DNA of 63,282 bases, filler included, from Craspedostauros australis (lineage: Eukaryota): NCBI GenBank assembly GCA_030167865.1. It is 5 parts of 5 records of this genome, joined end to end, with 100 filler letters (N's around TTAATTAATTAA, not from the genome) between each part and the next. Parts side by side here need not be neighbours in the genome. Positions count along the whole stretch, not along the records: positions 1 to 24,555 come from JALAGF010006353.1; 4 more parts are not named here. One strand, written 5' to 3'. The position numbers were made by a program, and so were the translations under genes. How positions within the stretch are numbered: the first letter of the stretch is position 1; every line of letters begins with the position of its first letter. This document shows positions 2,370 to 49,202 of this stretch, one piece after another. Below the pieces are notes generated by a model. That model was not told where the DNA came from, did no database searches, and worked only from the letters and a program-made list of their open reading frames with translations.

Positions 2370-5285
2370 ATGAAAATGACGGCAGACGAGGTGCTTTCCT
2401 TTCGGTCCATCTTGCCGCATGAACCCGTCCCGAGCGATGGGCTGGGCTATCTGATCCTGCAGGGTGCCTTCGAACCGAAGAATGCCGCAGCAAGCAAGCG
2501 GAAACACAAGAAGAAAGCTTCCGACGCAGGCAGCGACGCTGACCTCAGCCCTGATACCGACAAGCAACAGCATCAGCAACAGCATCAGCAACAGCATCAG
2601 GGATACCACTGGGAATCGCCAGATGATCTTTCCGCTGAGATTCTGCAACGCCTGAAGGAGCACAACCAAACGCGCCTCATTCATCTCACTCGTCTCGCGA
2701 GCACGGACGATGTGGAACCGCAGAGTGTCACAGTTCTCGACTCCAAGCAGCCTTTCACCAAGCTCCGCATAACGCTTCCAACTCCGCAGATTGCCTTGGA
2801 CTTGATGCTTCGGTACCGCAGCACCGGTCTATCGCCATCCGCCTTGTTCCGATCCATCCCGATACCCGAAGGCTTTGCGTTTGGCAATCAGACGTTCCAA
2901 ATCACGCCGGTGACGACGGCGCCGTTACCTGACAAGTGCTGCTGGCCGCGATCCAACCCTCCCAAATTCAGACGCTTGTTGGGTCGACCAGATGACGACA
3001 ACGTTGCAGCGCTGGAGATGGAACGTTCGCAAACGCGCTTCGTCTTCGTCACGGGTCTGCTTCAAACCAAGGTCGTGCCAGACGATTCACCATGGAAGCA
3101 AACGCACACCGTTATCAATGCCATCCGGCAATGGGCCAACACCTACGATTCATCGGGACTGGGGGTGGAAGTCTTCGTGACGCCCAAGAAGATGAAACAG
3201 TCCTGTCATCTGGGCATGCGCTCGTCGGAGGACGCGAAGCGGATGGTGGAATCATGCCAAGGCATCCGTGTGGATTGGAACGTCCAGGAGCATGCCAGCG
3301 GCAATCTCTTCTTGGACTACGCCGCCGTCACACAACGTTCGTTGATGAAATCACAGGCACGCCAGTTAGGTGCAGATGGCAACGATGTGCGTGGCGAGCC
3401 GTCACGGCCCGAATGCACGTCCACAACGAGTGGCGTTCACGTGCCAGGTTTGGTGGTGATCGATGATTACGTGTCGGTCGAAGAGGAAGCAGCCTTGATG
3501 GCCGTCCTGACAGGTCCACAAGCACCCTGGGCACCGGATCAGATCAACAAGAGCAACACCGGCTCGGTCAAGCGCAAGGTGCAGCATTATGGATACGTCT
3601 TTGATTATGAGACGGCCGATGTGCTGCGAGATCGGTCTGCGAAGGGTGCCGATTGTCCTGCGATGCCGTCGGTTCGTTCTCCTGCGCGCGCAAAAGAGGC
3701 AGGAGATGTAGACGAAAACGCTCAGACTAGTAACGGCACTGGTGATCAGCACGGATTAAGCCTGGAACAGCTGTCACAATCCTACGCCAAGGAGGGATAC
3801 GGCTGGGATGTGCTGGGTTGCGTGGTGCAGAAGACTCGACGGTATCCATTCCATCCAAGGCAGGCTTCAGCTTCTGATCCCGAAAGCGAACCCACCACCA
3901 CCACAGATGCGCAAGATGTCCAGCGGTATCCGAATATCAACCAACTCACTGTCAACCACTACAAATCTGGGGAGGGTATTGGATCGCACGTTGACACGCC
4001 GCCAGCATTTGCGGATGGATTGATCAGCATCTCATTGAACGGCGGCATCGTCATGGAATTCCGCAGGGTCGGCGCCGACGTGAAGAAGCTGGTCCATTTG
4101 CCAGCCAGATCGCTGGTGCTGATGTCCGGTCCCGCCCGGTACGAATGGGAGCACATGATCGTCACGAGACGGACGGACACGGTGGATGGCAATGTCATCC
4201 CGCGCAAGCTGCGCGTGAGCCTCACGTTGCGAACAGCCATCTCATTGCAAGGTCAACCAATGCCACTTGTCGAAAGAGACTTCACAACGCCGCCTGTCTG
4301 GGGCAGTGGCAGTGTCAACGGCAGTCGCAGCGACGGTAGGAAGGATGGCGGGACGTCGACCGAGGGCGCAGCCAACGCTCTGGTCACACCATCCACGGAA
4401 CGAGATCACGTGCATGCCGTGTACGACGCGATCGCAACGCAGTGGCACCACACGAGAGGTAAACGCGGGGTGCTGTGGCCAGGCGCGACGCAGTTTCTGA
4501 AAAGGCTCCCAAAGGGATCGGTCGTTGCAGATGTTGGATGCGGCGATGGCAAGTACTTCCCGGCCGTTTGGAACGCTGGGTCCTTCGTGATCGGATCTGA
4601 CATCAGCCGACCGCTGCTGGTGGAAGCGATGAATGCGCCGATGGCGCAGCAGGATGTGACCGAAAATCGACGCGTCCCGCAGCAGTACCAGCAGCTGCAG
4701 CGACGACCGGCCGTGGCTGTGGCAGATTGCATGTCGGTTCCCATCCGCAGCAAGAGCGTGGATGCCGCGATCTGCATCGCAGTCATGCACCATCTCAGCA
4801 CGGAGGCCAGGCGCATCCGATGCATCGAGGAGCTGACGAGGATCGTGCGTCCCAACGGACTGATCAACATCCAGGCATGGGCGATGGAGCAGGCAACCTC
4901 TAGCCGACGCAAGTTTGCTGCGCCCGACGTCTTCGTTCCGTTCAACGCGCAACCGAAGTACTTGGACAGGGTGGAGAAGTCCACCAAACCCAAGGACCAG
5001 CCAAAGTCCACATCCCAACCGAATGCTCCATCATCTGCAACAATGCCACAGGGCGAGAATAACGATGCGCACATATCAACAAGGAAGAGCGTGGCGCAGT
5101 CCTACTCTGAGGCATACACCAACGCGGATTACGACGAGAACAAGGGTCTGGTGGTGTTCCAACGGTACTGCCACATGTACCGCACCGGCGAATTGGAGCA
5201 ACTGGTCGCCAAGGTGCCGGGCGTGCGGTTGCTGGAGAGTGGGTACGAAACTGGCAACCACTTCGTCATCCTGGAGGTGATCTGA
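2370..5285 (+). CDS. ALKBH8: ALKBH8/Trm9-like tRNA wobble-uridine enzyme: RRM-like N-terminus + AlkB 2OG-Fe(II) dioxygenase + SAM methyltransferase
   Basis: AlkB motifs RKVQHYGYVFDY, NQLTVNHYKSGEGIGSHVD (HxD), YEWEHMI, RVSLTLR. Trm9 motifs HVHAVYDAIATQWHHTR, VADVGCGDGKY, DAAICIAVMHHLST, FQRYCHMYRTGELEQL. First in-frame ATG is at 2370; the ORF track starts at GTG 2358, so a short upstream exon is possible. Confidence 0.9.
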   Translation: MKMTADEVLSFRSILPHEPVPSDGLGYLILQGAFEPKNAAASKRKHKKKASDAGSDADLSPDTDKQQHQQQHQQQHQGYHWESPDDLSAEILQRLKEHNQTRLIHLTRLASTDDVEPQSVTVLDSKQPFTKLRITLPTPQIALDLMLRYRSTGLSPSALFRSIPIPEGFAFGNQTFQITPVTTAPLPDKCCWPRSNPPKFRRLLGRPDDDNVAALEMERSQTRFVFVTGLLQTKVVPDDSPWKQTHTVINAIRQWANTYDSSGLGVEVFVTPKKMKQSCHLGMRSSEDAKRMVESCQGIRVDWNVQEHASGNLFLDYAAVTQRSLMKSQARQLGADGNDVRGEPSRPECTSTTSGVHVPGLVVIDDYVSVEEEAALMAVLTGPQAPWAPDQINKSNTGSVKRKVQHYGYVFDYETADVLRDRSAKGADCPAMPSVRSPARAKEAGDVDENAQTSNGTGDQHGLSLEQLSQSYAKEGYGWDVLGCVVQKTRRYPFHPRQASASDPESEPTTTTDAQDVQRYPNINQLTVNHYKSGEGIGSHVDTPPAFADGLISISLNGGIVMEFRRVGADVKKLVHLPARSLVLMSGPARYEWEHMIVTRRTDTVDGNVIPRKLRVSLTLRTAISLQGQPMPLVERDFTTPPVWGSGSVNGSRSDGRKDGGTSTEGAANALVTPSTERDHVHAVYDAIATQWHHTRGKRGVLWPGATQFLKRLPKGSVVADVGCGDGKYFPAVWNAGSFVIGSDISRPLLVEAMNAPMAQQDVTENRRVPQQYQQLQRRPAVAVADCMSVPIRSKSVDAAICIAVMHHLSTEARRIRCIEELTRIVRPNGLINIQAWAMEQATSSRRKFAAPDVFVPFNAQPKYLDRVEKSTKPKDQPKSTSQPNAPSSATMPQGENNDAHISTRKSVAQSYSEAYTNADYDENKGLVVFQRYCHMYRTGELEQLVAKVPGVRLLESGYETGNHFVILEVI

Positions 5286-5750
5286 GGCATGACATTGGTC
5301 TGGTTTGGGGTTGGGTTGAGTTGGGTAGTCGCTGCGAATGTACGTAGACATAATGTGCGTCACAGAGGACCTCATTTCAGCCCTTCAGCGTAAATGTTGC
5401 GTTGATAGTTGTGAAGCTGCATCATGGTTTGTTGTCATCTGGAGTTGAGAGTGCGCTCCTCTACTCTACGACCTGCTCTACACTTGTTTGCCTATCGCCG
5501 CTATTGGAAATTGCGCTTATTGGTCCAACCACCGCAACCCCCAAAAGATCCGAGGCGAAGGCAAAAGCGGGGCATGATGCAACGAAAGGGGTCATTGGTG
5601 ATCCACGGGATCCGCCAGCTTCGTCAAAGCCGATTGGAAGTGAAATCAGTTTCGCGCACAGTCCCAATCGACACGCAGTGCAGAATCAAATCGAGCAGCA
5701 ATCTGTCAGAAGCAGAAGCAGAAGCGATATTAGTCTACGAGGAGTCCAAC

Positions 5751-8700
5751 ATGACAGAGGATTCCGTTAGATACCAGATCACCGGCCGGGTGGCGCACTC
5801 GCGGATCGCACCGCTGCTGCCATCGGACTGGATTGACTGCAGCCCCACTGCTGGAGATGCGACGGCTCCAAATTCAGAGCAATCGCTGCAAGAGGAGGAC
5901 GATGGTGGTGACCGGCAGAGCATCGACTTCCTGTGGGAGAATGCTCCTCGTCACGAGACGAGAGGATACCGGGACAATGTGAAGGTGTACTCTCACCTTC
6001 CCAACGGAACTTCCATCTTGGACAGCAAATGGGTGCTGGGCCGTTTGCTGGGTCGCGATGTTTGCGATGGCACTGACGATCCTTGCTTGGCAACTCTGTC
6101 CACCCACTGCGTGCAGGGACTGGCAGGCTTTCGATCATTCTGCCATGAAGTTGGTCTCGTGCCAATCGACAGCAGCAACCGCAACGCTGGGACTGTCGCT
6201 GACAACGATGTTGCTGGGGTTGGCGGCACTGAAGCACAAAGGCCAACTCAAGCCAACGACTTTTCTGTTGCAGCTTTTGCAGATTTGTGCGACAAGGAGG
6301 ACGCATCTGCGTCTGCGAAAGGCGAGGCATCCCCTCCTCCGGCTCCCACCAATTTCTGGGTGCTCAAGGACTCCAGCAGCAACGGTGCTGGCGGGATTTG
6401 GATCGTCGGCCCAGAAAACGTCCACAGATTCTTGGATGCATCCACATCGCCACTCTTCGAGACGCATCGGTACGTTCTTCAGGAGTACGTTTGGCCGCCG
6501 ATTCTGTATCAACAGAGGAAGTGCCATGTTCGCGTCTATGGACTCGTGACTTCAGATGGCAGGTCATTCTGCCATCAGCGTTGCTTCCTGCATGTCGCCA
6601 ACGACATCTTCCAATACACGTCGCCGACAGTATCATCATCTGCAGCAGCAGCGGCAGCGACAACAGAATCGGTTCGTGCAAGCGGCGATACTGAGTCCAT
6701 GTCCCGAGAGTCATCCAAACAGATCTTTCATGATTCCGTGCACATCACCAACTGCTGTGCCAACAGCCACGATCAGCACAAGTTTGCAGGTGAAATCTTG
6801 GCGGACCTGCAATCCGACCAGTGGGGCGTGGATCCAAACGGAGAGACCATCGTCCTGCTCAAGCAGTTCTACCCATCCATCAAGTCCACCCTCAGCGCCC
6901 TCACCGAGCGCTCATGGCCCTTCTGTGGCAACGGAGGCAGAGCCAACAACGGCTTCGAATACCTGGGAATGGATTTCATCCTTTCCTTCAAACAAGATGA
7001 AGACGATCCCACCCGAACGCATCCCGTAGCGTACCTTTTGGAGGTCAACGCCCCGCCTTCGCAGGACACAGCGACTGGCTTGCCCCACGCGGAGGACCTG
7101 CACAACGACGTTCTGAGGGATCTTCTTCATCTCTGGGTGATTCCGAACATCATGCCTGGAATTCCGGAACGACCAGGTGGTTGGATGTGCGTCTACCAAC
7201 ATCAGGACGAATCGGAAGCGGAACGGCGCCAGCAAAACGAGAACACGAAGACTAGCGACATCGTACCGTCCAAGGCCGTCATCCTCAACAAAATCCGATG
7301 GACGCTCTATGAAAAGAAGCTGATCAAGTCGGCTGCATCCAAGCGATCTTCCGTTGCCGCAGCGTCTCATTCTGCTATCAAAGGCAACGACAACGACAAA
7401 CAACAGACTGCCCCGGCATCAGCGAAAACGGCAACGGTATCAAAGACAGAATCAACGTCGAACACAACCGGTACGCAGCCCTGTGAGAAGTGCAAGATTG
7501 ACACAGCTGCGCATGATGATACCAACGAGATGGACCAAGACATGAAACACCGTGCGTTCTGCCACAATGTCGCAAGCTACGCTCAATCTCAATCCCCGTT
7601 CTTTGGTTATCATGATCAACATACCACAACCACTGCATCCAATCCATCCAAACCACCCAATCGACAGCCGCTGTTCTTTGAGAGTGCTGGGGGCGCGCAA
7701 GTTCCAGAATCAGTGCGAGCCTCGATGATGAAGGTGCTGCAATTCCGACATCGTGACATTGTTGGCAAGCGCTGCAAGGAGGCTGCGCGTGATACCATCC
7801 GGCGCATGCTTGGTGCCTCCGAGGATCGGTATTCCATCTTTCTAGGACAGAATGCAACGACCCTGCTTTCGCTGTTAGCATTCGCGTACTTGCAATGCGG
7901 ATTGTTGACGTGCGCCGATGAGGTCATTATTTGCACGGAAAATCATCTCGCCAACGTCGATCCGTGGCTCAAGGTCTCCGCAATCTCTGGATGTCAAATC
8001 AAGTGGTGGAATCCATTTCGATCGCGCAACAACACCAGCAGCGAAGGTGATACCGATGCAAGAGACAGCCGCGGGGGTAATGGTTCAGATGATCGAAAAC
8101 GAATTTGGTCAAATGACCTCAACGATTTGGTTTCACCCCGGACACGCATCGTCGCCATCTCTCATGCATCCAATTTGTTGGGAGAAGTTCGTGATATTCA
8201 ACAGATTCAGGGCATTGTCAGGAAACAATCCGACGGCCGTGCTCACTGTGTCGTCGATGGTGTCGCTGTGGCACCTCACATCTATCCCAACATCGACACC
8301 AACACTGTGGACTGGTACGTAATTTCGTGCCACAAACTATTCGGCCCTCACATCGGTGCGCTGGCAGGATCCAACAACGTTGTGCAATCCATGTCCGAGG
8401 ACCCAACCGCTGTGTTCAAGTCGCTGGAACTCGGCACCATCAGCTACGAAGCATGCGCGGGCATTGTGGGTTTGGGTCAGTACTTCAGCAACCTGGTGGA
8501 TCGCTGTTGCGAGGGCAGTCGGGTGCCACTGATGGACAAAACTCAGCTGCACGGATATGATCAAGAACCGGGACAGCAGGGAGCGCTCGGAGACAGCGTC
8601 GGTGGGAAACACCGTATTGTCTCCGTGAGTTCCATCTTGTCCTCGCAGGGTTTTCCACATACTCAACAACAGACGCACTCCGAACCAACGCAAGAACAGG

Positions 8701-9155
8701 GGAAGCAACAGCATCCTGAGCAAGCAGATCCATTTCGCGTTGTTCCGAAAGCACACATCGTGGATGCGTATCGACATGTTTTGGAAACTGTCGAGCCAAT
8801 ACTGTATCAGCACCTCGTGGCGATGTTGCAAAAGTCCACAGACAAGATCCGGCTGTTGCAATCTTCGTCGTCGTCATCCTCGTTGCACGTCACCTGCAAT
8901 ATTCCATCCACGCATCAACGACTTCCGATCGTGGCATTCGTCCATCGGACGCTGGCTCCGGCCGAGATTGTGCAATTCTGCCAATCGAATGACATCCTTT
9001 GCCGTGCCAGTACGTTCCTTGCCACGCAGTGGATGTCGGATGACTTTGAGTTCGATTGCAACGAGGGAGTCGTGCGGTTCTCCATGGCACATTACAACGG
9101 AATCAATGAAATCGAGCGTGCCGTGACTGTCCTTGGTACGATGGAAGGTTGGTGA
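5751..9155 (+). CDS. Fusion of a tubulin-tyrosine-ligase-like (TTL) ATP-grasp domain and an aminotransferase class V / cysteine desulfurase-like PLP domain
   Basis: Uninterrupted ORF (open from 5424; likely ATG 5751). TTL motifs WVLKDSSSNGAGGIWIV, YVLQEYVWPPILYQQRKCHVRVY, HITN, FEYLGMDFIL, LLEVNAPP at about 6355-7060. Class V motifs FFESAGGAQVP, ENHLANVDPW, SHASNLLGEV, VVDGVAVAPH, SCHKLFGPHIG (PLP Lys at 8334), ELGT, VRFSMAHYN at about 7670-9150. Confidence 0.85.
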   Translation: MTEDSVRYQITGRVAHSRIAPLLPSDWIDCSPTAGDATAPNSEQSLQEEDDGGDRQSIDFLWENAPRHETRGYRDNVKVYSHLPNGTSILDSKWVLGRLLGRDVCDGTDDPCLATLSTHCVQGLAGFRSFCHEVGLVPIDSSNRNAGTVADNDVAGVGGTEAQRPTQANDFSVAAFADLCDKEDASASAKGEASPPPAPTNFWVLKDSSSNGAGGIWIVGPENVHRFLDASTSPLFETHRYVLQEYVWPPILYQQRKCHVRVYGLVTSDGRSFCHQRCFLHVANDIFQYTSPTVSSSAAAAAATTESVRASGDTESMSRESSKQIFHDSVHITNCCANSHDQHKFAGEILADLQSDQWGVDPNGETIVLLKQFYPSIKSTLSALTERSWPFCGNGGRANNGFEYLGMDFILSFKQDEDDPTRTHPVAYLLEVNAPPSQDTATGLPHAEDLHNDVLRDLLHLWVIPNIMPGIPERPGGWMCVYQHQDESEAERRQQNENTKTSDIVPSKAVILNKIRWTLYEKKLIKSAASKRSSVAAASHSAIKGNDNDKQQTAPASAKTATVSKTESTSNTTGTQPCEKCKIDTAAHDDTNEMDQDMKHRAFCHNVASYAQSQSPFFGYHDQHTTTTASNPSKPPNRQPLFFESAGGAQVPESVRASMMKVLQFRHRDIVGKRCKEAARDTIRRMLGASEDRYSIFLGQNATTLLSLLAFAYLQCGLLTCADEVIICTENHLANVDPWLKVSAISGCQIKWWNPFRSRNNTSSEGDTDARDSRGGNGSDDRKRIWSNDLNDLVSPRTRIVAISHASNLLGEVRDIQQIQGIVRKQSDGRAHCVVDGVAVAPHIYPNIDTNTVDWYVISCHKLFGPHIGALAGSNNVVQSMSEDPTAVFKSLELGTISYEACAGIVGLGQYFSNLVDRCCEGSRVPLMDKTQLHGYDQEPGQQGALGDSVGGKHRIVSVSSILSSQGFPHTQQQTHSEPTQEQGKQQHPEQADPFRVVPKAHIVDAYRHVLETVEPILYQHLVAMLQKSTDKIRLLQSSSSSSSLHVTCNIPSTHQRLPIVAFVHRTLAPAEIVQFCQSNDILCRASTFLATQWMSDDFEFDCNEGVVRFSMAHYNGINEIERAVTVLGTMEGW

Positions 9156-9379
9156 CGTACCTATGGTAGTCGTAACGGCAGACTGACAAAAGTCAGTGCT
9201 TGCTCGGAGTACAGTATTCCACAGTACGAGTATTGTTTTGCTTGTGCACAACATGGCAGCTGTCATCGCGTGCATACTATTAAAACGAGGTACCAAAGGA
9301 CACTCTGGAAGGGACGGACGCATTCTTGTCATTACACTACTTTGTATCATGTGGAGCACCTCCAATTACACGAGCTTGA

Positions 9380-12300
9380 TCATACTCTGTCAAAGACCCA
9401 AGTGGTGTACCCAGGTCTCTGGTTGTAGTCGGTGCCGCTCTTCTTGCCACCACAGGCCTGTTTGATGATGGATTTGAGGCGCTTCCATGCTGACTTGTTG
9501 TCCTGCTGCGCGATGTTCACAGCCTGCTGGATGAAGTTCTGCCGCGCTCCGTCGCTCATCGTATCGAAGTAGCGGCCCGCCAGCAACGACGGGCGGGCGT
9601 GGGCGGCATCCACACGGAATTGCACCCTCATGGACATGTCGTAAATCGTGCCGAAGGTTGCCGTGTCCCGGGCCAACGCCTGAAAGAAGGCGGCGTACAC
9701 GAATGGAATGTACTCGACAGCCCAAGGCGGGAGCCCGCCCTGTGCTGCCCGAAACAAGGCGCCACCGATGATCGCAAGGCCCTGCATTCTTGGATCTTGT
9801 TGGGCGCCGTCGCCTTCCATTGGTTGGATGGGCACCTTTTCCATCATTGCGAGAGCAACGTGCTCCATCATGCCACCGTTGCCGCTGATCAAGAAGAAGT
9901 TATCGAGGAATTCCATCAATGCCAAGGTCTGTGGACCATCCATGCTCATGCCAGGGTCGTTCTGGCGGTCCTTCTGCAGCTTCCCCAAAGATGGGTAGAG
10001 CAGGAGGCAGACACAAGATACCAGCGAATTGACGAGCAGGCCTTGGATACTGTCCATGTTCACATCCCAATGCAGCTCACGCACCGCAGCGCAGATGCGG
10101 GTCATAATTGTGATCCATGTCTCCAGAATATGCGGCCGCGGATCTTCAAAAGATCCTTTGGCAGTGGGACTTGGACATGGCGACAGCACCACCGATAGGA
10201 CAGCCTCCTGAACTTGCGTTAGGAGATGGAATGTGGTGGATGTTGCGGATTGAGGGCTCCTCGTCCTCGCCGCGCGGTCAATGATTTCGTACGAAGCACG
10301 AAGCAAGAGCCCGGAAGGTATGGATTCGCCGGACACAACCTCTTCATGGAACAGTATGCTTGAAGATGCCGGTCCCTGTCCGCACTGGAAGGTGATTGCG
10401 TAGCATTCTGCCTGGATCAAGCTGACGGTGGACTGGGCGAATGCAGCCGGAATCGCGGTATCCTGCAGGCATTGCACCAGCGTGAATGAAGCTGCACGTA
10501 CTCGGTTCCACTGTTGCAGCTCCTCAAGGGAGAGCTGACGAGCATTGCCAACAAGGCTCTTGAAACCCAGTTGGACTGCGTTGTGCAGCACTTCCAAGCA
10601 GCGATGCGGCAGCTCATTCTGAGGTGCCTGCAGTTGAAACACGTCGCGGAGCTTCGCTGGTGTGAACGAAGCGAGGTCAAGTGCGCACTCTGCAATGTCG
10701 CACAGCTGAACAATCGTGAAGTCGTTCTGTTCGTTGTGACAAGCTGCAATCGATGTCAGGCATTCGTTCAGGATGCTATCTGTGACGCCGACCAAGGGCT
10801 GTGCGTTGCCATGCTGGCGGGCCAGTTCCATGTCGCAGATGACGCCCAACAAGATGCGCCTTGATTTGGGGAACACGCCCCGTCCATGAAACACGCCATA
10901 ACCGCGGTTCTTCTCGACCTGCTTCAAGTCGACATACAGCCGAGACAGCTCGTGGACGAAGTTGCCGTCGCTGAGCCTTGACATGAATTGCAGCAGCGCC
11001 TTGCTTTCCTTGACGAAACGCATCAGCACCAAGCAGCCCACATGATCCTCGCCTCCTGGGCTGCGCATGGCTCCTCTGATGTCGTATCGCGTGCTGGAAA
11101 GGGTTGACGGAGCAACCAGCTCGGGTAATTTGGAAAGCGAGACTGCTGCTGCGCGGACTACAATTTGTACGGTGTTGGCGATGCTGTCGTTGCCATCCGT
11201 CGATGTGACGAGGTTGTGAAGCATTGGGGTCATGGATCCCATCGCTAGGTTGTACAGGCGGCTGGTCGGGAGCACGGCTTGCATTGGTGCATTAGCAGCG
11301 AACAGGGACAGCAACCGTTGACCGATGGTAGCCGCAATGCTCAGCGCCGTTTGGATGATGTGCTGTACCTGGCCGTTAAATTCGCTCCCAAACACCAGAG
11401 ACAGCTGCTGCTGCTGCTGACCTGTCATGACCATCTTCGTGAGCTGATTCAATGGCTTGGCCAATGCGGAGAAGGCATGCAATGCAGGTTCGTCGATCGC
11501 GTCATGCTGAGCATTCAAAATTGCAACAGAGCACACTTGCATGATCTGCGATATGATGGCCAGAGCAACGTTTGCTCGCAGAACGATGCTCTCTGTCTCA
11601 TCGCCGCTGTTGCTGATGTTGTTCATGCCTGGCGGTAGCGCAATGACGGCCCGCAGAACGTCGCGGACTTCGTTGCGTTCTATTTCCAGCGAATCTTCGT
11701 TGTCAATCGTGAGATCATCGAAGTAGCGCGGCGGATACGCGCATTTGCGCGCCAAAGTCATCGTTAACGTGGAGAAGCATTTGCATAGTGCGTCCATGAA
11801 CTCTGGACGCAGCAATTGCGGGGAACTGCCTGGTTTGGACAATTGTTCAACGACGGCGGCATGCAAGGAGTAGAGGATCTCCATGGCAAAGGCGCGCACG
11901 CTGCGACAGTTGGAATTGCAAATGGAGCCAACTGCGGATGCGACGGCATCGAACAGCGGTTGTGCGCTGTGTGGTGGGTTCGGCTCTGCCAAACGCCGAA
12001 ACAATGCCGGGAGCGCAGCGTTGGCGGCTGCTGCCATGCATCCGACGGGGCTTTCACCGAAGGATTCGCCGTCGTCAGCCACGGATCCAAGTTCGTGTTG
12101 GAAGAGCGCGTTGAGTGGCTCCCAAACTTGCGCCAGCAGCTCGCACGCAGCATCGCAACGATATCGCACTTCAGTTTGCGCCATCGTCATGATGGAATCG
12201 GTGGTGCGCTCCCTAAGAACCGCTTGCTGTCGCTTCTTGGCTCGGCTGGATGTTCGCCTTTTGTTCGGTTGCGACGATGATTCCTGGGACTGGATCAGAG

Positions 12301-13597
12301 ATGCCGATAGAACTTTCTCCAATGACCACGTCCCTCCCTCGAAGACGGCGATCATGAATGCGATCGAAGCTCTCGTGGCGGCCGGATGCTTCTGCGCTAC
12401 TTCCAATTGCAGCGCACTCGACAGCACGAGCACGCACTGACGGATAACGTCGAGTGGGATGGATGCATACTTTGCCCATTGTTGCAGGGTGGTCAACGTG
12501 AGCACGAACAAGTCCGACTGGGAGTACGCCATCTGATCGGTGGCAGATGACAGCACGGCCTGCGCCACCAACTCGACGCCCTGCGCTCTGAGCTCGGTGT
12601 TGATTGCCTGAAAACAGCGCGAATCTACGGACAGCCGACCAAGGGCACCGCTGCTTCCACCCTCGCTGCCCGCGAGCAGAGCGTCGGGTATGGCGGACAG
12701 ACACGCGTGCTTGGCCTGCATTGCTATTTGATTGAGCTCCTGCGGATTGTGCACCGCAACATGGGATTTGGAGCATGCCAACGACTGCGTGCTGGAGAGC
12801 ATTTGAAGGATCATGGAGATGATGGGCTGGTCCGTGCTTGGCTGCGGGATCGATATCGGTGAATACCGCAACCTCGCAGCGAGGACGGCAAGCACGGATC
12901 CCAATGTTGCCGTTAGCGGTCGGATGGACGCGGTCGTTTTGCTGTTGTGATGCGAAGCGATGGTCAAGAATTGCACAGTCGATAAAACGATCATGGACAT
13001 GTTGCCCTTGACGGCGCCTTCGGTCGTTTCAGAAGCGTTGTAGGTGTACTGCGCGAAGATATCGGCGAAGATGGGATGAAATGAGCACAGCCAGTGTTGG
13101 TAGAGCGGTCCCATCTGTTCAGAAGGGAATTGAAGCGGGTGGATGCCCTGCTGTTCGATTTCCACGTCGATGGCCTCCTCCAACTTCAACCGTCTCGTCC
13201 GATGGACAAGGGTCTGTGCAGCAAACAAGGCCTCTGCATAATGAACCTGCTGGGTCGATGAATCTCCCGACATGAAATCGCAAAGCAACCGTATGCAAGC
13301 CAACCATGTGGAACCGACATCAGCGGGATCGTGTGGACATATGTGTTGCTGCTGTTGCTGCTGATGATGATGTGATTCTGCTTGGGTAGCCGTATCTCGT
13401 TGGCGCTTGACCTGAGAAGAGAGCTTGCGGCGGATGTTCCTGCTCTGAAATGACATCAGGTAGTCATGCGCTTGCTTCGGTGTCGGTCGGTTGCCATTTT
13501 GGAATGACGCATCGACATGAGGCAGCGAGTACAGACAACCCAAGGCCAACCTCAAGTCAGACCAGCGGGCCGGCATGGCCTGCTGCTGCTGCTGCAT
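9380..13597 (-). CDS. Large helical (HEAT/ARM-like) protein, probably importin-13/transportin-3-like
   Basis: 1405-aa ORF with helical Leu/Ala-rich composition. N-terminal LYSLP...KQAHDYLMSFQ...STW...LFAAQTLV resembles the importin-beta N-terminal domain of TNPO3/IPO13. Confidence 0.6.
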   Translation of the reverse strand: MQQQQQAMPARWSDLRLALGCLYSLPHVDASFQNGNRPTPKQAHDYLMSFQSRNIRRKLSSQVKRQRDTATQAESHHHQQQQQQHICPHDPADVGSTWLACIRLLCDFMSGDSSTQQVHYAEALFAAQTLVHRTRRLKLEEAIDVEIEQQGIHPLQFPSEQMGPLYQHWLCSFHPIFADIFAQYTYNASETTEGAVKGNMSMIVLSTVQFLTIASHHNSKTTASIRPLTATLGSVLAVLAARLRYSPISIPQPSTDQPIISMILQMLSSTQSLACSKSHVAVHNPQELNQIAMQAKHACLSAIPDALLAGSEGGSSGALGRLSVDSRCFQAINTELRAQGVELVAQAVLSSATDQMAYSQSDLFVLTLTTLQQWAKYASIPLDVIRQCVLVLSSALQLEVAQKHPAATRASIAFMIAVFEGGTWSLEKVLSASLIQSQESSSQPNKRRTSSRAKKRQQAVLRERTTDSIMTMAQTEVRYRCDAACELLAQVWEPLNALFQHELGSVADDGESFGESPVGCMAAAANAALPALFRRLAEPNPPHSAQPLFDAVASAVGSICNSNCRSVRAFAMEILYSLHAAVVEQLSKPGSSPQLLRPEFMDALCKCFSTLTMTLARKCAYPPRYFDDLTIDNEDSLEIERNEVRDVLRAVIALPPGMNNISNSGDETESIVLRANVALAIISQIMQVCSVAILNAQHDAIDEPALHAFSALAKPLNQLTKMVMTGQQQQQLSLVFGSEFNGQVQHIIQTALSIAATIGQRLLSLFAANAPMQAVLPTSRLYNLAMGSMTPMLHNLVTSTDGNDSIANTVQIVVRAAAVSLSKLPELVAPSTLSSTRYDIRGAMRSPGGEDHVGCLVLMRFVKESKALLQFMSRLSDGNFVHELSRLYVDLKQVEKNRGYGVFHGRGVFPKSRRILLGVICDMELARQHGNAQPLVGVTDSILNECLTSIAACHNEQNDFTIVQLCDIAECALDLASFTPAKLRDVFQLQAPQNELPHRCLEVLHNAVQLGFKSLVGNARQLSLEELQQWNRVRAASFTLVQCLQDTAIPAAFAQSTVSLIQAECYAITFQCGQGPASSSILFHEEVVSGESIPSGLLLRASYEIIDRAARTRSPQSATSTTFHLLTQVQEAVLSVVLSPCPSPTAKGSFEDPRPHILETWITIMTRICAAVRELHWDVNMDSIQGLLVNSLVSCVCLLLYPSLGKLQKDRQNDPGMSMDGPQTLALMEFLDNFFLISGNGGMMEHVALAMMEKVPIQPMEGDGAQQDPRMQGLAIIGGALFRAAQGGLPPWAVEYIPFVYAAFFQALARDTATFGTIYDMSMRVQFRVDAAHARPSLLAGRYFDTMSDGARQNFIQQAVNIAQQDNKSAWKRLKSIIKQACGGKKSGTDYNQRPGYTTWVFDRV

Positions 13598-27146: not shown

Positions 27147-30100
27147 TCACGGCTGTTGCAACGATGCCAGGTACTCTGCCAACTCGGTGTGTCCTTGCAT
27201 TGCAGCATCATCCTGCGGTCTCATACCAAACCGATTGCGGATGCTCGTGTCCACTTCGACATCAGGTGTGTCGAGCCAATCACGTACCGCCTTTAGACAC
27301 CCGTACCAGCACAAAACGTGCAAAGGCGTATTGCCATCCACATCGGCAATGTTCACATCTGCGTGAGCTCTTTCCAACAATTCGTCGATGACGGACTCGT
27401 AAGCGCCATTGCCGGCCGCGGACATTGTGCACGCGATGAACAGCGGAGTTTCGCGCCTCATGTTGGTCAGGTTGGGATTGGTCTGTTCCATCTCGAACAA
27501 GATTTCGAGAATATCCCAGTGCCCGCTCTGGCCGTCGCCGTAGTATTGGACCGTAAGATGCAATGGGGAGTTTCCTTCACTGTTTTGGACATTCACGTCC
27601 ACGCCTGCGATCTCGGTCAAATGACCCGCCACATCATCGTGTCCGCCAGCGCACGCAAAGTGCAGCGGGGTGTGTCCGAGCGCATCTTGCAAGTTGACGT
27701 TGGCATTTGGCAGCGTGAGCAGGCCTCTCACCACGTCAACGTGCCCACCAGCGGCGGCAGCGTGTATGAGTGTGCTTGCGTTACTGTACCGAGCATCAAT
27801 TTGGAGGTTGGGTTGTGCGATGAGATATTCGATCACAGAAAGACGTCCGTAGGTGTAGGCAAGGAGCAGCGGTGTGTAGCCTTGTTGGTCTTGGATGTTG
27901 ATATCAGCCTGTGCCTCTTCAACCAGATGTTTCACCACTTCAAAGCGTCCACCTGCGCACGCAAAGTGCAGCGGAGTTTGGCCAGCGGTGTTGAGGATGT
28001 TGACGCCGGTATTGGTCTGTCCACTCAAGTATTGCACCACCTCAAGATGCCCTTTCATGCTCGCGAAATGCAATGGGGTTTGGCCAGCGCTGTTGGGAGT
28101 GTCGGCACGGGCTCTCCACACGTCCACCAGATACCGAATGCCATCAGCATGCGTGCAATCTGCAGCGCACATGAGATGCAGTGGCGTATTGCCCTCGTTG
28201 TCCTGCTGATTGACGTCGAGTTGCTCTTCCGTCAGAAGGTGCTGGATGATGGCATGATGTTGCGCATCTCCATCATCCGAGAATGTTTGTTTGCTGCAGG
28301 CAATGTGCAACAGCGTTTGGCCAGCATTATTCCGAACATGCATTCGGATGCCCTCCCTATCAGCCAGGTACTTGAACATCTCGAAGTGTCCGTCCTTGAT
28401 GATGATGTGCAATGGGGTGTTGCCGTCATTGTCCGCGACATTGACATCCGCGTATGCTTCCACGAGTCCTTTGACGAGAACGTTGTATCCGCTCTCAGAT
28501 GTGTACTGTTTGCATGCTTCGATCAGCGGCGTTTGATGATGGTGATTGGGGAGGTTGACTTTGATTTGTGGCTGTTGCAAGAGTATGTTGAATACCTCCC
28601 AATGGCCGTCGACGAATCCCGGATCATACTCTCGGCAGGCAAGATACAAGGGGGTATTCCCATCATTGTCTTGAGCGTTGATGTTGATGTTGATGCCGAT
28701 CAAGTACTGTACGGTCTCGTGTCGTCCAAATCGTGCGGCGCAATGGAGTCCAGTTCTGCCATCCTCGGTCGTGAGACCAGGATTGAAGCCAACAGACTCG
28801 ATGAGATGCTGAACGGTCTCTAATTGGCGACGGCAACACGCATGGTGCAGCGGCGTGTTCTCATATTGTAGGTTGATGCCGTCACCAAGCGGACCTGTCA
28901 AGTACTCGACCACGTCCTTGTGTCTGTGTTGGCAAGCGAGGCCAAGGGGAGTATGACCAAGCTCAGATTGACTGTTGATGAGGGTGTTGCCAGCCTCCGG
29001 GTTGGATTCCACGAGGAGTTTGACCACACGCATGTGACCTTGCTGACATGCAATGTGCAATGGCGTGCGTCCATCGTCGTTGGAGATGGTCATGTCAACC
29101 GTAGCGCCCAATCCCATCAAATATTGAATCACCTGGATGTTTCCAAACCAACAGGCGCGGTACAGTCCTGTCTCGCCTTTATTGTTGCGGGCGTTGACAT
29201 CGATGTTGGTGTTCTCTGATTCCACCAAACATTGAACGACGTTGCCTTGTGTAGAACTACACGCATCATGGAATGGTGTGTTTCCATTGCTAGCGTTTCT
29301 GACGTTGACGCTTGCATGGACGTTTGCCTGCCTTGATTGCACAAAACATTGAACCGCTTTGGCGTGTTGGTGTTGGCAAGCAACATGGAGTGCTGTGTCG
29401 CCATCTGAGTTACGAGCGGTGGCATCAAGGTTGATCCGATTGGACTTCACCAAGTACTCTACCACTCCCTCCTGGCCAAAGCGGCACGCCAGATGAAGTG
29501 GAGAGTCTCCATCGTGGTCTTGCAAGTTTGGATCTACGTCGTTGCGATCCGATTCCATGAGGCACTTCAGCACAGCTTGACGACCATTGCCACAGGCAAG
29601 ATGGATTGGTGTGCATCCGCTGTTGTTGAGGATGCTGAAATTGATTCTGCCGTCCAGATCCGACTGAATCATGCATTCAACGACGCGGAGTTTGCCGTGT
29701 CGACATGCCAGATGGAGTGGCGAATCACCGTTGGTGTTTCTGACGTTGAACTTGATGACGTCCTCACCAAATCCAACCATGAATGCGACGATGTCGTTTT
29801 GGCCGTACTGGCACGCATAATGGAGTGGTGCGCAACCAGTTTCGTCTTGCTTGTTGATGTCGATGTGAATCTGCTTGGATGGTATGAAACGATATACGAT
29901 GTTCGTCTGCCCATGTCGGCAGGCCACATGCAGAGGTTTGTTTTGCTCGAAATCAATCCCGGCTCTATCCGATGTAACGAGATACTCGGCAAGATCCGCG
30001 TCCCCGTTCTTGCAAACAGTCTCGAGCGGCATGTAACCCTGATAGTTTCTGATGTTGAGATCAACGTTGGCCTGATCGGATTCCACCATGTATTCAACAA

Positions 30101-31844
30101 CGTCCCTTTTGCGCTTGCCGCAAGCAAGGTGAATTGGCGTGTCACCGTTTTCGTCTTGGATGTTGACGTCAACGTCGGCTTGATCTGATTCGATGAGATG
30201 TTTGACAACGTCGATGTGACCGTATCGACAGGCGTAATGAAGTGGTGTGTATCCCTTGTTGTTTTGGGTATTGACATCAACAGGTTGTCTGTCGTTGCAT
30301 TCGAACATGTATTGGATCAAGTCCTGGACCACATTCACCTGTCCGTGGCGACAGGCGACGTGCAACGGCGTGTTCCCGTCGTTGTTTGCGGCGTTGACGT
30401 CCACCTTCTCTTGATGATTCTTCAGCATGCGATAGATCACATGTCTCCTGCCACGACGACAAGCGACATGCAACAGCGTATTTCCGTTGCTGTTGGGTGC
30501 CTTGCCGCCACCATCGCCGTTGCCTTGATCGAGCCCAAGCAAGAAGTCGGCAACGCCATCGTGCCCACGACGACTGGCACTGTGAAGCGGCGTATTATTG
30601 TTCTTGTTCCTTGCTTTGGTGTCAACGTTGAGGTGTTGCGAATTCGCCAAATACTTGGCGAGATCTTCATGTCCGGATACGCAGGCGACATGGAATGGTG
30701 TGTTTCCGAATCTGTTGCGGACCTCGAGGTTCACTTTGGCTATCTGTGACTTTGTCATGTATTCCACCGCGTCTTTGTGCCCACGCCGGCAAGCGAGATG
30801 AAGCGGCGTGTCTAGATAGTAGTTTTGGATATTTGCATTGATCTTGGTTGGTTCTGATTCGACCAGTCGCTTCAGCACACCCGTTTGCCCACGCCAACAA
30901 GCGTCATGCAAAGGCGTATTGCCTCTGTTGTTGGTGACGTTGACATCAACGTCAGTTCGTTGTCGCTTCCTTGCCAACAGGAGTTCGATGTTGCCTTCGT
31001 CCCCGTGCCTGCAACCCAGATGGAGGGGCGTATCTCCATCCGTGTTCTTGATGGAAAGATCCATCTTGTTGCCCACACTGTTGCATTGCAGCATGTATTG
31101 GATCACATCTGTGTGCCCCTTCTGGCAGGCGTAGTGAAACGCGGTGAATCCCTTGTTATTCTTGGCGTTGACATCAACCGAGATGTTGGTGGATTTGGCG
31201 AGGGCGCGCACCACGTCCAGAAGCCCCGATAGACAGGCAAGGTGGAGCGCGGTGTTTGTCCTATCTTTGCCAGCGAACGACTTGTGTCCTTCCTGGTTGA
31301 CCAGGTAGGATGCGACCAAAGAACGGATCCACTCATCGTCGCGTTCTGCTGAAACGTGACCAAGCGGCGTCTTGCCAAGGTGGTCCTTGGTGTCGAAATC
31401 GGCATGGATATGGCTGTCGCTGCGATTGAGGTGCAGGAAGTACTCAACCACATCCGTGTGTCGCTTTCGACACGCGTAATGCAGCGGCGTCCAACCGTTG
31501 TTGTTCTGCAGATTGATGTCGATGCTGGTGGCTGCGTTGGTTGTGCTGTTGTTGTGGATGGAATGAATCAATGTATTGACCACGTCCCTGTAGCCCTTGC
31601 GGCAGGCCAGGTGGAGGGGTGTGTTGCCGTCGATATTTTGGATGTTGATGCATACATTGCCTGCGTCCACCCCCAGCAAACGCCAGATGATGTCTCTGCG
31701 CCCAAATTCGCAAGCCACATGCAGTGGTGTGTTGCCCCTTTCGTCTTGAGCGCTGATCTGCTCGATGGTATCATCGGCTGCGATGAGTTCCTGCACTTTG
31801 GATACGTTGCCGTGACGGCAAGCCTTGTGGAGCTCATAGTCCAT
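27147..31844 (-). CDS. Giant ankyrin-repeat protein (about 1565 aa, roughly 40 repeats)
   Basis: Continuous GxTPLHxAC..G/H...V..L repeats from MDYELHKAC to the C-terminus; no other domain seen. First ATG at 31844. Confidence 0.92.
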   Translation of the reverse strand: MDYELHKACRHGNVSKVQELIAADDTIEQISAQDERGNTPLHVACEFGRRDIIWRLLGVDAGNVCINIQNIDGNTPLHLACRKGYRDVVNTLIHSIHNNSTTNAATSIDINLQNNNGWTPLHYACRKRHTDVVEYFLHLNRSDSHIHADFDTKDHLGKTPLGHVSAERDDEWIRSLVASYLVNQEGHKSFAGKDRTNTALHLACLSGLLDVVRALAKSTNISVDVNAKNNKGFTAFHYACQKGHTDVIQYMLQCNSVGNKMDLSIKNTDGDTPLHLGCRHGDEGNIELLLARKRQRTDVDVNVTNNRGNTPLHDACWRGQTGVLKRLVESEPTKINANIQNYYLDTPLHLACRRGHKDAVEYMTKSQIAKVNLEVRNRFGNTPFHVACVSGHEDLAKYLANSQHLNVDTKARNKNNNTPLHSASRRGHDGVADFLLGLDQGNGDGGGKAPNSNGNTLLHVACRRGRRHVIYRMLKNHQEKVDVNAANNDGNTPLHVACRHGQVNVVQDLIQYMFECNDRQPVDVNTQNNKGYTPLHYACRYGHIDVVKHLIESDQADVDVNIQDENGDTPIHLACGKRKRDVVEYMVESDQANVDLNIRNYQGYMPLETVCKNGDADLAEYLVTSDRAGIDFEQNKPLHVACRHGQTNIVYRFIPSKQIHIDINKQDETGCAPLHYACQYGQNDIVAFMVGFGEDVIKFNVRNTNGDSPLHLACRHGKLRVVECMIQSDLDGRINFSILNNSGCTPIHLACGNGRQAVLKCLMESDRNDVDPNLQDHDGDSPLHLACRFGQEGVVEYLVKSNRINLDATARNSDGDTALHVACQHQHAKAVQCFVQSRQANVHASVNVRNASNGNTPFHDACSSTQGNVVQCLVESENTNIDVNARNNKGETGLYRACWFGNIQVIQYLMGLGATVDMTISNDDGRTPLHIACQQGHMRVVKLLVESNPEAGNTLINSQSELGHTPLGLACQHRHKDVVEYLTGPLGDGINLQYENTPLHHACCRRQLETVQHLIESVGFNPGLTTEDGRTGLHCAARFGRHETVQYLIGINININAQDNDGNTPLYLACREYDPGFVDGHWEVFNILLQQPQIKVNLPNHHHQTPLIEACKQYTSESGYNVLVKGLVEAYADVNVADNDGNTPLHIIIKDGHFEMFKYLADREGIRMHVRNNAGQTLLHIACSKQTFSDDGDAQHHAIIQHLLTEEQLDVNQQDNEGNTPLHLMCAADCTHADGIRYLVDVWRARADTPNSAGQTPLHFASMKGHLEVVQYLSGQTNTGVNILNTAGQTPLHFACAGGRFEVVKHLVEEAQADINIQDQQGYTPLLLAYTYGRLSVIEYLIAQPNLQIDARYSNASTLIHAAAAGGHVDVVRGLLTLPNANVNLQDALGHTPLHFACAGGHDDVAGHLTEIAGVDVNVQNSEGNSPLHLTVQYYGDGQSGHWDILEILFEMEQTNPNLTNMRRETPLFIACTMSAAGNGAYESVIDELLERAHADVNIADVDGNTPLHVLCWYGCLKAVRDWLDTPDVEVDTSIRNRFGMRPQDDAAMQGHTELAEYLASLQQP

Positions 31845-38758: not shown

Positions 38759-40036
38759 ATGATGATGGCTTGCCCTGCTCAGCTGTTGCGGATACTATCA
38801 TTGACTGCGACAGTCGCAATCGCGGAATCCCTCGTGACAACGCTACAATCAAACCAAGATTTATCGCATCATGCCCAGTCGCACGCACACTCCTTTTCGC
38901 TGACGGCGTCAGATCCATTTGGTCACCACCAACACAGAAAGCGCCGGCGATGGCCGCTGTCGTTGCCTTCAGCGGCATCTGACGACTTGCAGATGGACCC
39001 ATCGGATGACCCTGGTTCTGCGCAGCACCACTTCTTTCAGGATCGAGAGCCGTACCAGTCTTCCCTCTTCGCAACCCATTCAGCCGCAGCATCATCCGGC
39101 ACTGACACTGACACTGACAATGACACTGGCAATGATAAAGACAACTCAGCATGGAACGACTTCCTCCAACAGCTCTATGACAAGGAACAGGCGACGGGCA
39201 CTGCCCAGGACCCCGTGTGGGAACAGCTGAAGCTGGAAGCGCTGGACGCCTTGAGCCACGAACCAGAGGCCGGGCCCCAGATCTACCAGAACGTCCTCTC
39301 GCAACCATCGCTGCTGGATGCCATCATCGCCGTCGTCAGCAACGCCATAGAGACGGAGCTCATCCCGGCCACGGCCGTGCGCGACCTCTGCTTCAATCTA
39401 CTCACGAAGGAAGACGAGCACATGATCCGCTGGGATCTGCAGGCGGCCGCCATGAGATCGCCCAGCGTCGGCAACCTCGTCACGGCCATGCTCTTCCACG
39501 GCGGTCTCCACGCCCTCGTGTGCTACCGCGTCGGACACCGCCTCTGGCAGCTCAACAGAACGGGTCTGGCCTACTACCTCCAGTCCACGGTCAGCAGACA
39601 CTACTCCGCCGACATCCACCCGGCCGCCAAGCTGGGATGCGCCATCTACCTCTGCAGCTCCGCCGGCGTCGTCATCGGCGAGACGGCCGTCTGCGGCGAC
39701 GACGTCAGCATCCTGCAGGGCGTCACGCTGGGCGGCACGGGCAAGGAGCGCGGCGATCGACATCCCAAGGTCCACAACGGCGTCGTGTTGCAGGACGGGG
39801 CCACCGTGCTGGGCAACATACCCGTCGGGGACGGCGCCGTCGTCATGGCCAAGTCCATCGTCACCAAGCCGGTGCCGCCCTTGGCGCAGGTCAACGGCGT
39901 GCCGGCCAAGATCGTGTCCTACCGCACCCTGGATGCGTCCGCCTTCACGGATGATCTCGAGCATCATCTCGTGCGCAAGTACCTGCCAGATTGGAAGGCG
40001 CTGTCGTCAGATGCGGCGGCCGTCACTGCGAAGTAG
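38759..40036 (+). CDS. cysE: Serine O-acetyltransferase with N-terminal targeting extension
   Basis: LFHGGLHALVCYRVGHRLW, ADIHPAAKLG, GVVIGETAVCGDDVSILQGVTLGGTGKERGDRHPK, VLGNIPVGDGA, GVPAKIV. Hydrophobic N-terminus followed by a Ser/His-rich transit-like region. Confidence 0.93.
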   Translation: MMMACPAQLLRILSLTATVAIAESLVTTLQSNQDLSHHAQSHAHSFSLTASDPFGHHQHRKRRRWPLSLPSAASDDLQMDPSDDPGSAQHHFFQDREPYQSSLFATHSAAASSGTDTDTDNDTGNDKDNSAWNDFLQQLYDKEQATGTAQDPVWEQLKLEALDALSHEPEAGPQIYQNVLSQPSLLDAIIAVVSNAIETELIPATAVRDLCFNLLTKEDEHMIRWDLQAAAMRSPSVGNLVTAMLFHGGLHALVCYRVGHRLWQLNRTGLAYYLQSTVSRHYSADIHPAAKLGCAIYLCSSAGVVIGETAVCGDDVSILQGVTLGGTGKERGDRHPKVHNGVVLQDGATVLGNIPVGDGAVVMAKSIVTKPVPPLAQVNGVPAKIVSYRTLDASAFTDDLEHHLVRKYLPDWKALSSDAAAVTAK

Positions 40037-49102: not shown

Positions 49103-49202
49103 NNNNNNNNNNNNNNNNNNNNNNNNNNNNNNNNNNNNNNNNNNNNTTAATTAATTAANNNNNNNNNNNNNNNNNNNNNNNNNNNNNNNNNNNNNNNNNN
49201 NN
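49103..49202. other. Artificial scaffold linker
   Basis: 44 N + TTAATTAATTAA + 44 N. Confidence 0.95.

Follow-up and report, generated by a model that had tools for sequence, protein, structure and literature searches.

How many activities does one long reading frame in the nuclear genome of the diatom Craspedostauros australis encode and, if both of its halves are enzymes, what would they do together? The frame lies in the part that comes from record JALAGF010006353.1 (positions 1 to 24,555) of the window analysed here, a stretch of 63,282 nucleotides, filler included, in which five parts of five records of assembly GCA_030167865.1 are joined end to end; all coordinates refer to this window. 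At 5751..9155 of the plus strand, an inspection of the sequence (hereafter the original prediction) had read a ligase of the ATP-grasp type, resembling tubulin tyrosine ligase (TTL) and fungal Pby1, continuous with a class-V enzyme dependent on pyridoxal 5'-phosphate (PLP). The pair was not known there as a characterised architecture, and the ligase was proposed to attach an amino acid that the PLP enzyme would then tailor. We find the fusion to be genuine and widespread among diatoms. Overall, the best explanation is that the PLP half and the ligase half are coupled in one bifunctional enzyme, a reading to which we give a probability of roughly 0.55.

One gene, conserved as a fusion

The frame is free of stops from 5424 to 9155 on the plus strand and, from the ATG at 5751, translates into 1134 residues followed by a stop codon, so that the whole coding sequence (5751..9155, 1134 codons plus stop) requires no intron and is the single open reading frame (ORF) that had been predicted. 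In an alignment of 121 fusions, consisting of the window protein and 120 relatives, 98 of the 120 homologues start at the position of Met 5751 and 103 carry no more than 10 residues ahead of it. Given the 98 homologues that begin there, 5751 is likely the start, and the in-frame stretch 5424-5750 is probably a leader. A Pfam scan placed both TTL (PF03133) and Aminotran_5 (PF00266) above their curated cut-offs, with scores far beyond chance expectation.

The architecture turned out to be the standard diatom form and not an unusual one. A search gave 172 matches among proteins of 623-1985 residues, and all 120 listed relatives carry PF03133 and PF00266 together, the opposite of homologues that are always encoded by separate genes. 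Species names are attached to nine of the 120 (Mayamaea, Cylindrotheca, Seminavis, Amphora, Nitzschia, Cyclotella, Fragilaria, Stephanocyclus and Conticribra), and we take all nine genera to be diatoms, pennate and centric. In the Atlas, one cluster contains both families; its 71 members are 100% Eukaryota and their commonest phylum is Bacillariophyta, the phylum being known for 10 of the 71. Furthermore, metagenome DNA yielded 47 related loci, 31 of which contain both the ligase motif and the PLP-lysine motif, and one uninterrupted ORF holds the two motifs in 28 of these 31. At loci L015, L021 and L030, by contrast, the two halves are read in different frames that adjoin and overlap on one strand, which suggests a linker intron or a sequencing frameshift in some diatoms. 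Loci L041-L047 (26-27% identity) match in the ligase part only; the ORFs of L044 and L041 lack a PLP domain according to Pfam, which recognised in them only TTL, plus an unrelated downstream DUF900 hydrolase. For P0164, a PLP protein that looks as if it stood alone, a DNA scan gave 69 pattern matches, none of which was confirmed.

The original prediction had left room for an architecture already common and characterised. It is common; a full-text literature search, however, found no paper on the domain pair, which agrees with the initial remark that the pair was not known as a characterised one. Both domains come from known families, and what is new is their conserved pairing and its implication for the Pby1 group. 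We hold with high confidence that the locus is a genuine single gene of the diatom nuclear genome and that it encodes a bifunctional enzyme.

The ligase half

The TTL-family ATP-grasp ligase domain, Pby1-like, occupies 5763..7319 (plus strand, as all features of the gene; residues 5-523) and matches PF03133 with 60.5 bits against a cut-off of 20.1 (E 2e-16). All motifs named in the original prediction are present at coordinates verified by translation. The stretch KDSSSNGAGGIW (6366..6401) contains the ATP-binding Lys206 and the glycine-rich loop, and all but one of the 121 fusions retain K206, D207, N211, G212 and G214, the remaining row being gapped. It is followed by QEY (6480..6488) and by RKCHVRVY (6516..6539), in which K257 and R261 align with the Lys and Arg of TTL RKFDIR; K257, H259 and R261 are kept in 121/121 fusions, and R261 is in the alignment the counterpart of TTL Arg202 and of Arg533 of K. 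lactis Pby1 (KlPby1). HITNCCAN (6741..6764) comprises the HxTN motif of TTL and then a Cys-Cys pair, with H331, N334, C335 and C336 kept throughout the 121 proteins. This Cys335-Cys336 pair (6753-6758, directly after HITN) is specific to clade A, that of the class-V fusions, other clades having VC, VS or LA. GMDF (6966..6977) provides Asp408, a predicted Mg2+ ligand and the counterpart of KlPby1 D647, and LLEVNAPPSQDTATG (7035..7079) the predicted catalytic Glu431, aligned with TTL Glu331 and KlPby1 Glu660, as well as Asn433 and then the clade-specific PPSQDTATG. None of D408, E431, N433, P435, P436 and Q438 is replaced in any of the 121 fusions.

Beyond the core, a conserved helix (PSKAVILNKIRW..., 7266..7376) is predicted at residues 506-542 of the AlphaFold2 (AF2) model; its P506, S507, K508 and A509 are invariant in alignment A3, and the alignments of the VIA structure search with TTLL11, TTLL7 and TTLL6 extend to model residues 520-523. 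The model of this half has the full TTL fold, with a predicted local distance difference test score (pLDDT) of 77.4 and a predicted template modelling score (pTM) of 0.80. The N-terminal half is a complete three-domain TTL-family ATP-grasp ligase in which all ATP, Mg2+ and carboxylate residues are kept.

To which TTL-family branch the ligase belongs was addressed with a profile (A1) of the window's first 560 residues and 17 ligase-only fragments, searched against all sequences of the PDB. The top matches were Pby1 of S. cerevisiae (E 4.5e-17) and of K. lactis (1.7e-15), and far behind them came tubulin tyrosine ligase (3.6e-8) and TTLL6 (4.5e-8), so the foreseen likeness to Pby1 and not to the canonical tubulin ligases was borne out. 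In the alignments, RKCHVRVY stands opposite RKFHIRCY in Pby1 and RKFDIRSW in TTL, HITN opposite HLTN, GMDF opposite G(V/F)DF, and LLEVNAPP opposite LLE(I/V)NAFP in Pby1 and LIEVNGAP in TTL; H259 is common to Pby1 (RKFHIR), whereas TTL has Asp there (RKFDIR). In the VIA search with the ligase model the six TTL-family entries, aligned over 287-337 residues, were TTLL11 (Z 25.2), TTLL7 (22.9), TTL (22.5), Pby1 (22.5), TTLL6 (21.7) and TTLL3 (19.7), with other ATP-grasp ligases at 16 or less, and a Foldseek search of the PDB returned a list filled with TTL chains of tubulin complexes in which Pby1 was unranked. Since VIA ties Pby1 with TTL and the TTLLs, the Pby1 assignment, which we regard as supported, rests on sequence.

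The diatom ligase and Pby1 (PDB 6y3z, 6y3p) have in common the motifs RK(F/C)H(I/V)R and LLE(I/V)NA and the same catalytic set (KlPby1 D647, E660, N662 and R533), and both are two-part proteins with an enzyme-like partner domain. The partner differs, however, being N-terminal and SurE-like in Pby1 and a C-terminal class-V PLP domain in diatoms; the SurE family was absent from the Pfam matches of the window protein at E up to 1, its N-terminus being the ligase domain. With the TTL and TTLL glutamylases and glycylases the diatom protein shares fold and catalytic residues, but the sequence match is much weaker (3.6e-8 and worse) and His259 stands where TTL has Asp. The diatom fusion probably does not act as a tubulin tyrosine ligase.

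The 2020 structural paper on Pby1 describes TTL Glu331 (KlPby1 Glu660) as Mg2+-binding and essential, KlPby1 D647 and N662 as the remaining metal ligands, and TTL Arg202 (KlPby1 Arg533) as the residue that holds the substrate carboxylate (PMC7293026). It also judges that Pby1 does not act as a tubulin tyrosine ligase, leaves both the acid substrate and the nucleophile of the enzyme unnamed, and reports its binding to Dcp2 and its localisation to P-bodies (PMC7293026). In the one diatom paper found to mention a tubulin-tyrosine ligase, the enzyme is regarded as a cytoskeleton gene (PMC7335047).

The PLP half

The class-V (fold-type I) PLP domain extends over 7656..9152 and matches PF00266 with 102 bits against a cut-off of 21.5 (E 4.4e-29). 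It begins with FESAGGAQ (7677..7700), the N-terminal signature of the Cys-less 'desulfurase-like' branch, of which E644, G647, G648 and Q650 are kept in 121/121 fusions. We compared it in a 30-row alignment (A2) of diatom-type, TIGR01976-type and SufS-type proteins, in which the bacterial TIGR01976-type rows read (A/P)GG(S/T/A) at this site, in many cases followed by Q. His732 in ENHLAN (7938..7955), which presumably stacks on the PLP ring, and Asp836 in VDGVA (8253..8267), which we assume to partner the pyridine nitrogen, are present in 121/121 fusions and invariant in A2. SCHK (8325..8336) carries Lys862, the Schiff-base lysine, aligned with the Lys of Fgm3, UstD and SufS; S859, H861 and K862 are kept in all 121 fusions, and so is His843. 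Arg1109 (in VVRFS; 9075..9077), by our assumption the conserved fold-type I arginine that binds the substrate alpha-carboxylate, is invariant in A2, where it is numbered R490 of the segment, and found in 119/121 fusions, the other two being gapped there. The original prediction of a complete class-V domain with its SCHK lysine thus held, as did that of the loss of the SufS catalytic cysteine: in RASTFLA (9003..9023), aligned with RTGHHCA of SufS, Leu1090 takes the place of the Cys in the persulfide loop, and among the 121 fusions this position is Leu in 117, Lys in one, a gap in three and Cys in none.

Among NCBIfam models the best was TIGR01976, matched in three insert-broken stretches with 173.6 bits, which is less than its curated cut-off of 352.35, so that the placement is one by rank and not by membership; sufS (97.8 bits, cut-off 475.1) and IscS (21.4, cut-off 643.2) likewise stayed below theirs. 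Against PDB sequences the PLP half matched Fgm3 (1.3e-25) and UstD (1.1e-19) ahead of SufS (3e-17) and Rv3778c (4.7e-16). Its AF2 model (pLDDT 80.6, pTM 0.82) matched the class-V PLP fold as the other model matched the TTL fold, and its VIA matches included Rv3778c (Z 43.6), SufS (40.8), UstD (39.8), cystine lyase C-DES (36.7), selenocysteine lyase (34.1), carbon-sulfoxide lyase (33.1) and Egt2 (27.1). With TIGR01976 as the best family model and Fgm3 and UstD above SufS, the Cys-less branch that had been proposed was recovered. Judged by its sequence, the C-terminal half sits in the branch that contains UstD, KpbH, Fgm3 and TIGR01976, and is not an Fe-S cysteine desulfurase. Public records label the fusion 'cysteine desulfurase', 'selenocysteine lyase' or 'hypothetical protein'; as the protein has no catalytic Cys, the first two of these labels lack support. 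Both halves are predicted to be catalytically competent.

By sequence, the solved proteins nearest to the PLP half are UstD and Fgm3, which like it are without the SufS cysteine; as in UstD, its Schiff-base Lys is followed by K-L-F. KpbH was taken in as a homologue of UstD; of the three, UstD and Fgm3 were compared with the window protein itself. These three differ from the diatom domain in that identity is about 24%, in that they are stand-alone enzymes of fungal secondary metabolism, and in the two long inserts of the diatom domain. The TIGR01976 type, represented by M. tuberculosis Rv3778c (PDB 3cai), gives the best NCBIfam model and the best structural match and has a related AGG-type N-terminal signature, but the score is under the cut-off and TIGR01976 itself has no established function. 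SufS and CsdA have the same fold and PLP-binding residues, yet their catalytic Cys corresponds to Leu1090 and the sufS score is far too low. UstD converts L-aspartate into a nucleophilic enamine, which it then adds to an aldehyde (PMC11976203, PMC13741828), KpbH (47% identical to UstD) performs a Mannich version with pyrroline-5-carboxylate, and Fgm3 catalyses the retro-aldol cleavage of gamma-hydroxy-arginine (bioRxiv 10.1101/2023.03.21.533663); all three take free amino acids as substrates, and in each case a bond at the beta-carbon is formed or cleaved.

The linker and the inserts

Between the two domains lies the low-complexity linker that had been predicted (7377..7655), rich in Ala, Ser, Thr and Lys and predicted to be disordered, with pLDDT below 50 at the ends of both AF2 models. 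From query residue 525 to 640, the 121 fusions have 25-158 residues, with a median of 52, and the window protein has 115. We rejected an origin of the linker as a repeat expansion; 5300-9400 holds only five short tandem arrays, none of which scores above 40. The PLP domain contains two further low-complexity inserts. Insert 1 (8013..8120) is gapped in most homologues and has pLDDT below 50 at model residues 152-162, and insert 2 (8493..8750) falls below the same value at model residues 317-339 and 346-360; at the site of the latter, diatom-type rows of the 30-row alignment have variable inserts and bacterial rows none.

Related ligases and a sister fusion

The ligase profile was searched against 1.84 billion representatives and gave 3498 matches at E<=0.001, 552 at <=1e-10 and 163 at <=1e-30. 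Among the best 150 matches, 59 are at least 700 residues long, and a class-V domain is present in 54 of these 59. In P0266 and P0276 the ligase is followed by a class I/II aminotransferase (PF00155). The PLP part of P0276, in which the SFSK lysine is preserved, has its closest likeness in aminoadipate, kynurenine and aromatic aminotransferases, Pby1 is again the top match of its ligase part, and its cluster has 15 members, six of which are 850-residue proteins on contigs of their own. Other partners were a leucine-rich repeat (LRR) part in P0306, whose cluster includes a protein under the label of a MAST-4 stramenopile, an N-terminal part without assigned family in P0297, and a listerin-like part, possibly from a merged gene call, in P0287.

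We then placed 42 ligase domains in a tree with IQ-TREE: 14 class-V fusions, 12 of them from the set of 121, and 28 of 38 more distant proteins (P0251, P0254, P0261, P0268, P0270, P0284, P0287 and P0303 being among those omitted). The search was a quick one with midpoint root, and support was given by SH-aLRT (Shimodaira-Hasegawa-like approximate likelihood ratio test) only. All 14 class-V fusions fell into one clade of 18 rows (SH-aLRT 96) and both class I/II fusions into a separate clade of eight rows (SH-aLRT 100), with brown-alga-type and MAST-type clades between the two. The motifs split in the same way, with HITNCCAN and PPSQDTATG on one side and HITNV(C/S)RN and CPPNN on the other. The tree and the motif split therefore indicate that two separate Pby1-like ligase lineages were joined to two different PLP enzymes.

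Proposed coupling of the two activities

The nucleophile of TTL-type ligases is the alpha-amine of a free amino acid, and a PLP enzyme requires a free alpha-amine. Since a TTL-type ligase consumes the group that the PLP enzyme needs, the simplest coupling is one in which the PLP half acts first. The PLP half would act on a free alpha-amino acid through a PLP-bound alanine enamine or ketimine and, by analogy with the aldol and Mannich reactions of UstD and KpbH, in which aspartate is decarboxylated, or the retro-aldol reaction of Fgm3, would form or cleave a bond at the beta-carbon. The ligase half would activate a carboxylate as an acyl phosphate and join an amine to it. The PLP half would thus supply a free amino acid, for example from aspartate-dependent C-C bond formation or from beta-carbon cleavage, and the ligase half would attach it to a carboxylate, be it that of a protein tail or that of a small acid. 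The fusion in the sister clade fits the same logic, aminotransferases being enzymes by which keto acids are turned into amino acids. A single pathway for both activities is in our opinion probable, while the PLP-first order is proposed tentatively, at somewhat less than even chances. Docking of residues 1-500 against residues 636-1134 gave a score of 0.00, which is evidence neither way.

Several points weigh against the coupled enzyme and its parts. The substrate, the product and the order of steps are deduced from sequence and models. The VIA search cannot split Pby1 from TTLL11, TTLL7 and TTL, whose Z scores (22.5-25.2) are nearly tied, and the TIGR01976 placement is one of rank. The tree is a quick search of chosen rows. 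There are also diatom-type proteins with apparently only the ligase or only the PLP part, many of them on short contigs. In addition, P0329 (754 residues, in clade A and a cluster mate of P0249) has a diatom-type ligase followed by SIR2; this fusion, seen on one contig and perhaps a merged gene call, may point to protein and not small-molecule substrates.

The opposite order, that of the original prediction, in which ligation of an amino acid to a protein or small molecule would come first and the PLP half would afterwards modify the attached residue by C-S lyase, decarboxylase or epimerase activity, fits poorly and appears unlikely. It would agree with two intact, tethered domains and with the same-fold C-S lyases among the structural neighbours (C-DES, carbon-sulfoxide lyase and Egt2), and it would work if the linkage ran through a side-chain amine or carboxylate. 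Ligation by a TTL-type enzyme, however, uses up the free alpha-amine, and R1109, which we assume to be the alpha-carboxylate anchor, is kept in 119/121 fusions with two gaps. With a free alpha-amine required and the carboxylate-binding Arg retained, the substrate of the PLP half should be an amino acid that is free or held by its side chain only. The nearest characterised relatives, moreover, all use free amino acids, and the partner in the sister fusion is an enzyme that makes them. The PLP-first order appears more economical than ligation followed by tailoring.

We also doubt that the halves are chemically uncoupled, the PLP domain serving as a dimerising, sensing or regulatory module of a protein-modifying ligase or the two activities being unrelated. 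Class-V enzymes are established as dimers, the partners of Pby1-type ligases vary (SurE-like in yeast, LRR in P0306, SIR2 in P0329), and the linker is long, variable and predicted to be disordered, all of which such an arrangement would accommodate. A structural module, however, would not keep K862, D836, H732, H843 and R1109 near-invariant in 121 proteins, and a second PLP family was apparently fused independently to the sister clade with its own Lys kept.

Less probable still is a PLP half that works as a Cys-independent sulfur or selenium enzyme, such as a cysteine sulfinate desulfinase or a selenocysteine or cystine lyase, delivering alanine, sulfite or selenide. The fold does allow Cys-independent chemistry of this kind (cysteine sulfinate desulfination and selenocysteine lysis), a further point against the coupled enzyme as proposed, and both the public names and the structural neighbours SufS, C-DES and selenocysteine lyase lean in this direction. 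Against it, no protein out of 121 has Cys at the SufS position, the sufS model reaches 97.8 bits where 475.1 are called for, and Fgm3 and UstD outrank SufS by sequence.

Finally, an artefact in which the ORF reads through two adjacent genes is very improbable: the linker (7377-7655) is spanned by no read, run X1, whose kind is only guessed as RNA and may be DNA, giving in the 5300-9300 region two contigs (5300-5365 and 8670-9207, the latter of 539 nt and crossing the stop codon with 0 differences) that leave it uncovered, and the halves lie in different, overlapping frames in 3/31 metagenome loci, but one frame is kept in 28/31 independent loci, all 120 listed relatives are fused, the frame stays while linker length varies, and the three exceptions have their halves next to each other on one strand, a layout that would result from an intron or a frameshift error.

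Surroundings of the gene

Upstream, 2370-5285 of the plus strand encodes a protein with AlkB-like 2-oxoglutarate-Fe(II) oxygenase and methyltransferase domains, presumably an ALKBH8-like layout; the first X1 contig ends at 5365, 80 nt beyond the stop of this gene. On the minus strand, an ORF of 1405 codons (9380-13597) is convergent with the fusion gene and matches no Pfam family at E up to 1e-5. In other parts of the window we found a 1565-residue protein made almost entirely of ankyrin repeats (27150-31844, minus strand; Ank_2 in 22 stretches), an ORF (46997-49147, plus strand) that carries PF22936, the Pol beta-barrel domain of retroelements, and lies where G+C is lower (0.45-0.50), the N-terminal domain of a serine acetyltransferase (38759-40033, plus strand) and a sulfotransferase (45313-46647, minus strand). 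A gene cluster with the last two was considered and rejected, as they lie about 30-37 kb away and non-adjacent, and the host is a eukaryote.

Implications

Diatoms account for a large share of marine primary production, and the gene recurs in records of both pennate and centric diatoms with two intact predicted active sites. Its PLP half extends chemistry of the UstD/Fgm3 type, which is valued in biocatalysis, from fungal secondary metabolism to a conserved algal gene. Moreover, that two clades of the Pby1 group are fused to different PLP amino-acid enzymes is apparently the first clue that the ligases of this group use free amino acids produced on site. That diatoms make a non-standard amino acid in cis, through PLP chemistry that forms or breaks C-C bonds at the beta-carbon, and use ATP to attach it to the acidic tails or side chains of proteins, as a new, diatom-specific post-translational modification, is a speculative extension that we think unlikely as a whole. 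If it were true, ligases of the Pby1 type would by extension generally work on amino acids, with the nucleophile made ready by the fused domain, be it a class-V PLP enzyme, a class-I aminotransferase, a SurE-like domain or SIR2, and the function of yeast Pby1 would become approachable for the first time.

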